DNA of 64,000 bases from a bacterium (GTDB taxonomy: Bacteria > UBA8248 > JACPRG01 > G963555815). The stretch lies in NCBI GenBank assembly GCA_965261595.1, contig CBDHDG010000004.1, forward strand, positions 800,001-864,000, written 5' to 3'. The notes beneath the pieces were generated by a model. It was given only the letters and a program-made list of their open reading frames with translations, searched no databases and was not told where the DNA came from. The position numbers and the translations under genes are program-made. Positions 4,325 through 10,602 of this stretch are shown in pieces (within the stretch, counting starts at the first letter, position 1; each line of letters starts with the position of its first letter).

Positions 4325-4458
4325 GGAATCCACAGATTTCACAGATTGCGCAGATAAGAACATAAAGGCGGGAATCCGCGACAATACGGGAGTCCCATCG
4401 ATATATGACCAACCTTTCGCCTTCTTGTTTTCTGTGGGGACTGTGAAATCCATGGATC
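4325..4458. repeat. 9-nt-periodic inverted-repeat element upstream of the GxxExxY gene
   Basis: GGAATC CACAGATTT CACAGATTG CGCAGATAA at 4325-4357; degenerate inverted arm TCTGTGGGGACTGTGAAATCCATGGAT at about 4431-4457. Confidence 0.8.
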
Positions 4459-4537
4459 GACATCCACTGAAAATGAGAGATCCAACGACGTATGCCATCA
4501 TCGGGGGGACGATGGTGGTGCACCGAGAAATGGGTCC

Positions 4538-5941
4538 TGGACCGCCCCTGGGTTATTGGACACTCGGGTGAGGGTATTCGACCTCATGCGGCCTCCGCAA
4601 CTTGAGCGAGTTTTTCCTGCCTTGCCTGGGCCGGCGTTCGGTAGCCGTAGCCCTCGAGAATCCAATGATGGTTATACAGGTTCTTGAACTCAAGCAGCGC
4701 CCACCGCAGTTCCTCTACGGTGGCGAAAGAGCGCACCCACAGGAGATTCTCCTTCAAGATGCGGATAAACCACTCACAGTAGCCATTTCCCTCGGGCGCC
4801 CGCACGAAGCTGGGCGAACTGGTCATGCCCAGGTAGGCGATCTCCCGCTGAAAGTCATCGGACAGATAGGCGGGGCCGTGGTCGTGACGAACTTTAAGCC
4901 CCTCGGCGACGTCCGCCTCCAAGCCGGCGAAGCGCTCGGCGACCCCCTGCCGGATCGGCTCCAGGGCCTCGAAGCGGTTGCCGCTCTTGGCCGCATGGAT
5001 CCCCACGCAGTCCACCGAACAGTGATCCACCGCCACGAACACCGAGGCCATCCCCTCCTCGGTGGTCACCGTCGTCGTCATGTGCGTGCCCCACATTCGG
5101 TCGGGCCGCTCGGTGCGGATGGTTCCGTTGTGGGCCTTGGGACCTCGGGGTTTGCCCACCCGGTGGGGGGCCTGAAGCCCCGCCTCCCGCATCAGGCGAC
5201 GCACCCGCTCCTTGCTGGTGCGGATGCCCGCGAAGCGCAGCCTCGCCCACACCTTGCGGTAGCCCTCGCCATGGAAGGGAGAGTCCTCCAGGACCTGCCG
5301 GATGTGGCCGAGGAGTTCCGCATCGGTGCACGGGCCCACAGGGCCGCGCTTATTGGGCGTGGGGCGTTCATGAACGGGGACCGCCTCTCGCCGCCGTTGC
5401 GCGTAGACCGTGGAGCGCGCCAAGCCCCAAAGGGCGCACACCCGCTTCAGGCCGTAGGCTCTGCCCGTGGAGGTGAAGCGGGCCTGACTCATCGCCTCCA
5501 CCTCCTGCCGGCTAAAGGGCGGCCGGCCTCCAGGCGGTCGATCTTCTCCCGCAGGACCTCGCCCTCCATCGTGAGTTCGCCCACCTTGGCCTTGAGCCGG
5601 GCGTTCTCCTCGTCCCGCTCATCCGCCGGGCGGGCTTTGAGCGCCGCCTCGCCCCCGCGAAGGAACGCCTCGCGCCAGGCGGAAAGCCGAGCCGCTGTCG
5701 TGCCCAACTCGCGGCAGAGCGTCTCCAGGCTCTCGCCCCGCAAAAGACGCAGGACCGCCTCCCGCTTGCGCTGGCAGGAGAACCGACCCCGCTCACTGCG
5801 ATGCCCTGGGGCCTTGGCTCCGTTCGCCCTACGGGCGCCCTCCGCCAAAGCCCCCTCTTGCTTTTGTTCGTTCATCGCGACACCCCTTTCTCCATGAATC
5901 ATGGATCAATCGAGTGTCCAACAAAACCCTAGAGCGGGGGA
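4538..5941 (-). mobile_element. IS3-family element, copy 1 (1404 bp; orfA 5489-5902, orfB 4584-5501)
   Basis: Imperfect TIRs TGGACCGCCCCTGGGTTATTGGACACTCG / CGAGTGTCCAACAAAACCCTAGAGCGGGGGA; 4-bp TSD GTCC (4534-4537, 5942-5945); HTH orfA plus rve-like orfB. Confidence 0.92.
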
Positions 5942-6203
5942 GTCCCGGCTTTCTGGAGGCGGTGTGCCAGGAGGCGCTCGCTTTAGAATTCGACGAGCGG
6001 GGGGCGCCATACCAACGCGAGGTCGAATTGCCGATTCTTTACAAAGGGCGACAGCTCGACACCCCCTATCGAGCGGATTTTATTGGGACTTATATATTTG
6101 GGTTAATTGCGTTCAGGCGGAGCATGAACGTGGAGCCCCTAGAATACAAGAGGCTTACATCCTATGTTTAGGGAATTATATACGATAGTGCCGGAACCGC
6201 CCG

Positions 6204-9300: not shown

Positions 9301-10259
9301 CCCGAACCGCAGGCCGGGTCGCAGACCGTATCCCATGGCTCCGGATTGGCAAGTTTCACCGCGACGCGAACGACGCCGCGCGGCGTAAAGAACTCGCCTT
9401 TCTCACCGATGAACTTGGATTCGGAAAAGACCTTGAAGGCGTCGCCAACAACATCGCTGTCGGTATCCTGCAGGCTGCCGCGCTCCAACTGCCCGACCAC
9501 CCACGCCAACGATCGCTCATCCAGAGTGATGGTGTCATGCGCGGAGAAAATACCATCGTTCTTGAGTTCGTCGCGCACGCCAGCGAACAGGGTTTTGATC
9601 CGCTTCGCCACCACCTTCGGCTTTTCACCGGCACCCACTCGAAACTCGGACGGGCGCTCGGCTTAGGTCTGTTCGTCGTGCAACTTAGCGAAAATGACCT
9701 TTATCATCTCGCTGCCCAGCTTTTCCTTCCGGCTGATATTCGTATTCGCGTAAAGCGTGTGCAGGATGCGCCGGAAAGCCGATTGGAGCGCGCTTCGGTC
9801 GAACGGGCGAAGGTCGGCTCTTTCGATGCGCCCCACATCCTCGACGGACTGTCCGGCCGCCGGGATGTTGTTTAGGTAATCGCCGACGATCTTGTGGCCG
9901 TGGCGGGCCAGGTACGCGATATCGGTTCCGTTCGTCCAAACGCCCCATGCCGCCGACGTGGCGGTCATGTAGGATTTGATCTGCTCCAAGCCGTCTTTCC
10001 TCGTCGGTTTTTTGGTTTCGACGATGCCGAGAATGTGTTCTGCGGGATCACGCCCGCGGGCCGATTCGTAAACGACGATATCCGCCCGGTCCTTGTAGAA
10101 TCCGGTGCCGCGCGGGATCTTTACTTCGATATCGAGACGCTGTTTCGGGTAGCCGTAACTCTCGACCAGGATACGTTCATATTCTTGGCGCACACGCTCT
10201 TCGGGACTTTCGATATCGACCGGCTTGCCGGTCGCAAAATCGACGATTTTACTGGGCAT
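6392..10259 (-). pseudogene. Fused restriction-modification enzyme (HsdR-N-like nuclease + N6-adenine MTase + specificity-like C-terminus), inactivated
   Basis: PEERVRQ...RADIVV...IVETKK; GEFFTPR, DPACGSGGFL, ITNPPFG; in-frame stops at 9663-9665 and 8355-8357; IS at 6816-8219; C-terminus VIGKKK...VRRGSYRIG continues to 6392. Confidence 0.85.
6816..8219 (+). mobile_element. IS3-family element, copy 2 (orfA 6855-7268, orfB to 8173)
   Basis: Near-identical to copy 1, inverted; flanks AACG/GACG (4-bp TSD with one mismatch); orfA stop overlaps an orfB ATG (ATGA at 7265-7268). Confidence 0.92.
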
Positions 10260-10570
10260 GCCTCACGCCACCAAGGCTTCGTAGGTTAGCCGTTTCCCGA
10301 ACATGCCGGGGGCGATTCTCCCCAGGTACTCCATCGTGTCTCCTTCATGTTATAGTGGCCCAAGAACTCGGTCAAGTCCAATATTAACCCAAATATATAA
10401 GTCCCATTTTATTTGCTTTGATTCGGTGATTGTCGAAACCAAAGCACTTGGCAAGCTCAGCAGGGTTGAAGAAGCTCAACTCATCAATTACCTGAAGGCC
10501 ACAGGACACAAAGTGGGTCTCCTGTTGAACTTCGGCACGGAGAAACTCGAACATCGAAGGTTTGTTTATT

Positions 10571-10602
10571 AATCTGTGTATTCTGTGAAATCTGTGGATT
10601 CC
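10571..10602. repeat. Inverted-repeat arm directly after the GxxExxY stop codon
   Basis: TCTGTGAAATCTGTGGATTCC (10582-10602) is the exact reverse complement of 4325-4345. Confidence 0.85.

Follow-up and report, generated by a model that had tools for sequence, protein, structure and literature searches.

A GxxExxY nuclease gene between phased inverted repeat arms points to an undescribed kind of selfish DNA

The stretch of DNA analysed here, called the window throughout, is a 64,000-nucleotide piece of a bacterial genome (GTDB lineage Bacteria; UBA8248; JACPRG01; GenBank assembly GCA_965261595.1, contig CBDHDG010000004.1, positions 800,001 to 864,000); its source genome is referred to as G000. 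Near the left end of the window, between an ABC permease gene that ends at 4305 and a peptidase gene, lies the gene of a GxxExxY protein, a small protein assigned to the PD-(D/E)xK nucleases, enclosed by inverted repeat arms. With two later insertions removed, arm, leader, 127-codon gene and second arm make up a unit of 541 bp. This unit may well be one copy of a family of compact selfish cassettes, each made of a minimal PD-(D/E)xK nuclease, GxxExxY, and inverted arms that are arrays of a 7- to 8-nt core repeated every 9 to 10 bp. The architecture, as it can be read from the sequence, points to an undescribed kind of selfish DNA. Our literature search, to which subscription journals and supplements were outside, found no paper describing this architecture and none with any of the four arm strings.

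The two outer arms (Table 1) are 42 nt long and 81% complementary, and their outermost 21 nt (4325-4345 and 10582-10602) are perfect reverse complements, as had been stated in a preliminary description made from the sequence alone. A two-unit version of the arm pattern occurs 8 times in the window, against 0.17 occurrences expected, and none of 100 shuffles reached 8. The third, degenerate arm that had been placed at about 4431-4457 is present as well; read in the same orientation, it shares 78% of its bases with the right arm. Because this inner arm pairs with 4328-4360, positions 4328-4457 make a complete arm-core-arm hairpin of about 130 nt, and the start codon of the gene, at 4452, falls within the hairpin's inner arm. 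Reading through both insertions by coordinate restores an open frame of 127 codons holding GFLEAVC, ADF and VETK, in agreement with the single GxxExxY open reading frame (ORF) of some 120-130 amino acids that had been predicted. Gene fragments 2 and 3 each score above the cut-offs of PF13366 (22 bits) and TIGR04256 (35 bits), every score being that of one fragment. The right arm had been said to begin at the stop codon, and its inner end does overlap that codon; its outer end lies 1 nt upstream of the next gene's ATG (10604). The G+C content of the unit is 50%, against 66-67% in the flanks. No transposase is encoded in the arm-bounded unit, judging from the window's ORFs and a profile search, and an Rfam scan of the window at gathering thresholds gave no family.

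Table 1. Arms, gene fragments, insertions and gene-less elements of the window
Feature	Positions	Strand	Description
Left (outer) arm	4325..4366	+	ATCC terminus, then three 9-nt units CRCAGATT-N; pattern matches 4331-4347, 4340-4356
Inner degenerate arm	4425..4457	-	33 nt, 73% complementary to 4328-4360
GxxExxY gene fragment 1	4452..4537	+	Start codon to insertion point of insertion sequence; GTCC target copy 4534-4537
IS3-family insertion sequence, copy 1	4538..5941	-	1404 bp; ORFs HTH_Tnp_1, HTH_21/rve; GTCC duplication, second GTCC 5942-5945
GxxExxY gene fragment 2	5946..6083	+	GFLEAVC ... YRADFI; PF13366 42.3 bits, TIGR04256 46 bits
Second insertion, cargo element	6084..10406	-	4323 bp; perfect 24-bp terminal inverted repeats 6084-6107 / 10383-10406
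GxxExxY gene fragment 3	10413..10572	+	CFDSVIVETK ... stop TAA 10570-10572; PF13366 55.7 bits, TIGR04256 65.3 bits
Right arm	10561..10602	-	Three units; inverted repeat of left arm and pattern matches
Gene-less arm-core-arm element	20704..20830	.	Pattern matches; arms at syntenic place in G001, alignment breaks inside element
Gene-less arm-core-arm element	25947..26073	.	Same subfamily as 20.7-kb element; same site occupied in G001

Gene and arms are found in the same genomes. Among 41 related genomes, which make up most of this small phylum, PF13366 is present only in G000, in a member of the same genus (G001) and in a member of another genus of the family (G006), and the same three carriers were found among 46 genomes of the phylum that are at least 90% complete. 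A 20-nt arm pattern, with at most one mismatch, has 51 matches in G000, 43 in G001, 6 in G006 and a single stray one in G012; the other 37 genomes have none, and a reversed control pattern matches nowhere. One GxxExxY copy follows the same permease gene in all three carriers. The G001 gene starts directly at its left arm and breaks off after IVEIKA; in G006, at the orthologous site, CRCAGATT arms stand on both sides, the stop codon overlaps an arm, and the 3′ end of the gene is frameshifted. G006 has a second, intact gene, which belongs to another subfamily and is flanked by hairpins of ACAGGAT plus two bases. Of the ten matches to ACAGGAT arms in G006, five lie around this second gene; G000 and G001 have no such arms, and a single stray match occurs among the other 38 genomes. 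By these matches, each gene subfamily has its own type of arm, and this is so even where two subfamilies share a genome.

The permease site also exists without the unit. In G004, a congener of G006, the permease stop codon is followed by 22 nt and then by the start codon of dut, and in G006 these two genes have the whole unit between them. One site with a filled and an empty allele, as looked for with homing-type genes, can thus be named, and the presence/absence at an orthologous site on which the preliminary description had made its case depend is borne out, along with a replaced allele in G000 versus G001. Between these last two genomes the 3′ end of the permease gene is 96.0% identical in nucleotides, whereas the cassette gene is 63.3% identical (57% in amino acids); between G000 and G006 the corresponding nucleotide values are 77.7% and 70.2%. 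An exchange of the cassette, at a fixed site, may have followed the split of G000 and G001, or two old alleles may persist; on either view the arm-bounded segment has undergone turnover. A different arrangement is seen at the same site in G003 (L088 2424-3340), where a degenerate arm is followed by a nucleotidyltransferase/HEPN-like pair (judged from ORFs) and then by the final ~65 nt of the permease gene in duplicate, as if another insertion had used this hotspot. Between the right arm's outer end and the start codon that follows there is 1 nt in G000 (window 10600-10606) and 6 nt in G006 (L005 1404-1412), so that the downstream gene can have a ribosome-binding site only within the arm.

One could read such replacements as the work of an enzyme encoded elsewhere, for which the arms would be integron-like or hotspot-like recombination sites and GxxExxY the commonest passenger. 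The different cassette in G003, with its degenerate arm and duplicated permease 3′ end, would suit this idea, as would the allele exchanged between G000 and G001 and the gene-less arm pairs of G000, which enclose unrelated cores. We nevertheless think it unlikely, given that the same 3 of 41 relatives have both arms and gene and that the arm class follows the GxxExxY clade within one genome and, as described next, across at least five phyla. No recombinase gene was seen to recur beside the units, though no systematic search for one was made.

The association extends across phyla. From 579 relatives of the second G006 gene confirmed by tblastn, we took the best 80 loci, whose hosts include Chloroflexota, Verrucomicrobiota, Planctomycetota, Acidobacteriota, Pseudomonadota and others; at 73 of the 80, a flank of 250 nt was available either side of the gene. 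When the two flanks were compared, the top-scoring ungapped inverted repeat reached at least 13 at 44 of these 73 loci, compared with 3 of 145 control ORFs from the same loci, and at least 20 at 20 loci and at none of the controls. CAGGAT, on the gene strand, is 10.5-fold enriched upstream, and ATCCTG 10.6-fold downstream. Of 149 upstream intervals between neighbouring cores, 79 measure 9 nt and 19 measure 10 nt; among the 128 downstream ones, 58 and 12 do. A phased pair in the expected polarity is found on at least one side at 58 of the 73 loci and on both sides at 30; at 10 loci there is none in any orientation. Together with the co-occurrence in the same 3 of 41 relatives and the cognate arm classes, the excess over controls sustains the statistical link between gene and repeat that the preliminary description had anticipated across genomes.

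On a protein tree of 84 rows, the CRCRGAT arm class (14 rows) needs 4 changes, compared with 13.2 for shuffled labels, and none of 500 shuffles went as low. One clade of 10 rows, nine of the CRCRGAT class and one unclassed, covers five host phyla; G000, G001 and G006a form a clade of their own on a long branch. On this tree, arm type follows protein clade, not host phylum. Metagenome relatives belonging to the window gene's subfamily were collected with a single G006 protein as the query, and 33 of 45 loci were analysed, 12 with short or cut matches being left out (L128, L136, L140, L144, L147, L149-L155). The window's arm type is present within 260 nt of the gene on at least one side in 32 of the 33 and on both sides in 13, and in eight units the right arm ends, on its outer side, 21-30 nt past the stop codon. 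The PF13366/TIGR04256 family is very large: a single search gave 3876 proteins at an E-value of 1e-5 or better.

In 15 units compared, the likeness of the two arms within a unit (0.725) exceeds that between units (0.602), and none of 5000 permutations reached the within-unit value. From this comparison, the two arms of a unit evolve in concert. Arms that covary in this way are also what one might see if they acted mainly as RNA, with the arms, transcribed as part of the host operon, pairing into a stem that RNase III or a similar enzyme cuts, so that the cassette RNA is released and the neighbours are expressed, and with the nuclease gene as cargo; 23S rRNA intervening sequences with an S23p ORF behave in this way. 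Both here and in G006 the unit fits precisely into the gap from one gene's stop codon to the start codon of the next, and the cassette gene is co-directional with its neighbour in 63 of 73 cases upstream and 56 of 72 downstream (by crude ORF calling), which would be in keeping with such processing. However, complementarity alone leaves unexplained the 7-nt core conserved from phylum to phylum, the strict 9- to 10-nt phasing, the fixed polarity and the fact that arm type follows protein clade, and it is silent on why a site may have or lack the unit; single arms and same-strand runs of arms also occur. As the main role of the arms, we consider this improbable. A role as an RNA stem may hold in addition to that of a selfish cassette.

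The protein itself has the residues expected of a nuclease. D68, E78 and K80 of the PD-(D/E)xK motif are invariant in 33 of 33 aligned sequences, and the window copy has ADF and VETK. The N-terminal motif, too, keeps its G, G and Y in 33 of 33, and the Tyr is present in G001 and G006; the window copy reads GFLEAVC, with Cys in place of Tyr as had been noticed earlier, and so departs from the name-giving G-x-x-E-x-x-Y motif. An AlphaFold model has a pLDDT of 94.5 and a pTM of 0.87. Structural comparison places it closest to Cas4 SSO0001 (Z 7.9), followed by the BpuSI nuclease domain (7.7), 3ijm (7.3) and Hjc (6.3), all of which we take to be of the restriction-endonuclease (PD-(D/E)xK) kind; none reaches Z 8, and the best Foldseek E-value, 2.3e-3, is above 1e-3. 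Named nucleases, which we likewise take to be of this kind, dominate the top 50 structural rows, some of which are large unclassified complexes. Assignment to the PD-(D/E)xK superfamily is probable, with no closer family that can be named. A sequence search of solved structures gave no match, and neither did searches of PADLOC and PHROGs. A 2012 survey of PD-(D/E)xK families gives the function of PF13366 as unknown (PMC3424549), and one paper mentions in passing a GxxExxY domain beside a reverse transcriptase.

Given its conserved catalytic residues, GxxExxY might simply be a cellular or defence nuclease, with the arms as its own operators and the dispersed arms as common intergenic repeats in which the motif happens to recur. 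Operators typically consist of phased direct repeats next to a start codon. An operator, however, would not need the mirror copy that follows the stop codon, and the blank PADLOC and PHROGs searches speak against this reading. Presence or absence at a site, low G+C and patchy spread across phyla fit a mobile unit better, and we find the operator explanation very doubtful.

How might a selfish cassette of this kind work? We envision that the encoded protein would recognise the phased cores of its own arms, with several protomers sitting side by side, and would nick or cut arm-bearing DNA. Host repair or recombination could then copy, exchange or remove the segment between the arms. Repair triggered by the nuclease in this way would explain why the unit is there or missing at a site, why alleles have been swapped at a fixed position and why the two arms evolve in concert. 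Gene-less arm pairs would be non-autonomous relatives that use the protein in trans, much as REPINs, hairpin-capable doublets built from repetitive extragenic palindromic (REP) sequences, depend on RAYTs (REP-associated tyrosine transposases). By pairing in transcripts, the arms may also separate the cassette from the host operon in the manner of 23S rRNA intervening sequences. More broadly, it seems possible, and we propose it tentatively, that a new class of miniature mobile DNA, one that crosses phyla, has GxxExxY proteins as its dedicated nucleases, each subfamily reading its own phased arrays and spreading, swapping or removing what lies between them by nuclease-triggered repair, with the gene-less hairpins, which number in the hundreds in some genomes, as REPIN-like dependants.

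If the unit does propagate itself, the PF13366/TIGR04256 family would gain a function, a widespread class of intergenic hairpin repeats would be explained, and the REPIN/RAYT system would have a second, enzymatically unrelated counterpart. The lineage studied here offers a compact test bed: three of its genomes carry the gene, one site is known empty, a single genome combines two arm specificities, and public data contain a natural allele free of the insertion sequence (IS).

The gene-less elements deserve separate consideration. The preliminary description had reported the same arms without the gene at 20.7 and 26.0 kb, and both pairs are there. A scan of the whole genome, which it had also suggested, found the family dispersed through G000: beside the 51 matches to the stricter 20-nt pattern, a loose pattern gave 115 matches, which merge into 83 arms and 47 clusters. 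Twenty-five of the clusters are multi-arm, 7 are long single arms and 15 are lone 17-mers; the last may be chance matches, because shuffled sequence predicts about 21 of them. A convergent arm pair spanning 48-371 nt is found in 20 clusters, and single arms and same-strand arm runs are also present. Against this number of arms, PF13366 is found once in G000, as the broken window gene. The excess of gene-less arms is not peculiar to G000: five genomes with 1, 1, 4, 3 and 1 gene matches have 4, 12, 95, 220 and 52 phased pairs, respectively, and all controls have 0. The genome with 220 pairs of phased CAGGAT cores and three GxxExxY genes is G051, a 4.9-Mb member of the Terriglobia; many of its pairs are convergent and about 115 nt apart, and they look like a uniform gene-less hairpin family.

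Many cores of the gene-less elements contain a second conserved hairpin module (approximately tgtcattccga ... cgaggaatc), for example at C1:203541-203648, C4:57452-57567, C6:706104-706203 and C7:1179611-1179714 of G000, and the gene-less elements are therefore mosaics of two or more repeat modules. At C5:620494-621232, four tandem units of 233-243 nt each open with a same-strand arm. Other candidates were considered and set aside. A RAYT as the driver of the family was rejected for G000, as no Y1_Tnp gene there is flanked by arms; the distance to the nearest arm cluster is 2.2 kb or more for all five Y1_Tnp genes. PF05635, another candidate for the cognate gene, has no match in G000, G001 or G006. 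An ORF of about 130 codons (C7:1127428-1128032), RidA-like by a family name taken from its sequence only, also lies between two arms, but these are on the same strand and their flanks are repeated, so that it looks like a local duplication of about 580 bp carrying an arm, not a cassette. Several copies of the arm terminus contain TTATCCACA, which suggested a DnaA box; the box does not match the inner units, however, and is missing from other arm classes.

The unit can be set beside four known kinds of element. Miniature inverted-repeat transposable elements (MITEs) and small IS elements have terminal inverted repeats, gene-less miniatures and intergenic insertion, and the cassettes resemble them in all three respects. 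They differ in that there is no DDE transposase here, no target duplication at 15 units, and gene-less cores that are mostly unrelated to the unit. Homing endonuclease genes are not bounded by repeat arrays and leave no dispersed gene-less repeats. The likeness to them is that of a small nuclease gene which only some alleles of a site contain, and a lone nuclease could spread by break repair; the difference lies in the repeat-array borders and dispersed gene-less repeats seen here, and cutting of the empty site would in our case have to be presumed.

The closest parallel in layout is the REP/REPIN-RAYT system of Bertels and Rainey, which, as outlined in their accounts, has a single-copy gene flanked by its own inverted repeats (PMC3116915, PMC3337134). 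In the same accounts the gene is accompanied by many more gene-less inverted doublets that can form hairpins, and the repeat family is specific to the gene variant. Here, too, a gene stands in inverted repeats, and gene-less inverted doublets, the 20 convergent clusters, are dispersed in extragenic positions. However, a protein of about 125 amino acids with a PD-(D/E)xK fold (PF13366) takes the place of RAYT, a Y1/HUH transposase; the arms are arrays phased at 9-10 nt rather than single short palindromes; and a site either has the complete unit or lacks it, the unit occurring in many phyla with proteins that are 70-80% identical. The suggestion of a RAYT/REPIN-like layout with a different nuclease thus holds for the layout, with inverted arms around the gene and a cognate link between the two, whereas the gene as driver is something we infer.

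The intervening sequences of 23S rRNA that carry an S23p (PF05635) ORF, such as that of Coxiella burnetii, make up the fourth comparison (PMC4990558). By the description given there, they are about 0.4-0.5 kb long, have one small, often decaying ORF and terminal inverted repeats that form a long stem, and are of obscure origin and spread, all of which recalls the present unit. Our unit, in contrast, lies between protein-coding genes and not in rRNA, its ORF is not PF05635, which has 0 matches in G000, G001 and G006, and its arms are phased.

Several observations weigh against a self-propagating cassette. All three copies at the permease site in the genus and family are damaged (insertions and the Cys in G000, truncation in G001, the 3′ frameshift in G006), and their arms persist. 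Six gene-less clusters, two in the window and four at C4 54-59 kb, are occupied in both G000 and G001, with internal indels of about 50-65 nt, and no recent movement of gene-less copies was seen among these six in that comparison; the roughly 30 arm clusters of G000 appear at present static. No target-site duplication was found outside the ATCC termini of the 15 units compared. Similarity to the leader of the unit is unclear in 15 of 16 gene-less cores (z of 3.2 or less), while one core reaches z 5.6. As the cores are mostly unlike the leader, gene-less pairs cannot be simple deletion derivatives of the unit, and we rejected that origin for them, with 1 of 16 cores resembling the leader at z >5 and one more at 3.2. 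The preliminary description had called the gene-less copies non-autonomous derivatives of the unit; gene-less arm pairs do exist, but, with no clear likeness to the leader in 15 of 16 cores, their derivation from the unit is doubtful, as is their movement, with the six clusters in place in both G000 and G001. To our knowledge, there is no known way for a PD-(D/E)xK protein of 125 amino acids to carry out strand transfer alone. Arm binding, cleavage and transposition by any member of GxxExxY are steps that we infer, and a gene and arms inherited as one block and moved by something else would give the same association. The 80 loci, moreover, are the best tblastn matches to one subfamily, in which relatives are not independent samples, and the protein tree is a quick maximum-likelihood version.

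The window copy appears to have been broken recently. The preliminary description had called it dead, which is right for this assembly, with its two insertions and its Cys. In contigs of all four public runs compared (from four studies), however, position 4533 is joined directly to 5942, and the IS and one GTCC are missing. Because this IS-free allele is found in the contigs of four public runs, we conclude that the copy was broken recently; in this assembly the IS burst described below and the cargo element destroyed the gene. IS-free contigs and window have no base differences within 4325-4533 or 5942-6084, and therefore the Cys in place of the invariant Tyr is also in the uninterrupted allele. 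A contig of 8031 nt, found in three of the runs, continues beyond 6084 and includes there 31 nt that match the left arm in reverse-complement orientation, just as a right arm would. As the contig extends about 2 kb beyond 6084, the 4.3-kb insertion presumably cannot intervene there. Coverage of 6459-6800 is zero in runs X2, X7 and X13, which alone is no proof that the second insertion is absent.

This second, cargo-bearing insertion has duplicated its target TTTTAT (6078-6083 and 10407-10412). Its ORFs include, by Pfam, an HSDR_N_2 nuclease domain (9663-10259) and an N6_Mtase/Eco57I region (8355-9638), besides further ORFs, and the two together read as a type IIG-like restriction-modification gene that has been split. 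Nested in the cargo element is IS copy 2 (6816-8219), which interrupts one of its ORFs. The IS3-family element has undergone a massive recent burst in G000, with 177 full-length copies that are at least 98.9% identical and 13 partial ones, amounting to about 4% of the 6.17-Mb genome. The 24-bp terminal repeat of the cargo element has 11 copies genome-wide and marks an element family with 6-bp target duplications and varied cargo. Other members of this family lie at C5:129446-131012, C4:595166-598435 and C5:701048-704694 of G000; one member is 1.5 kb long and has three ORFs.

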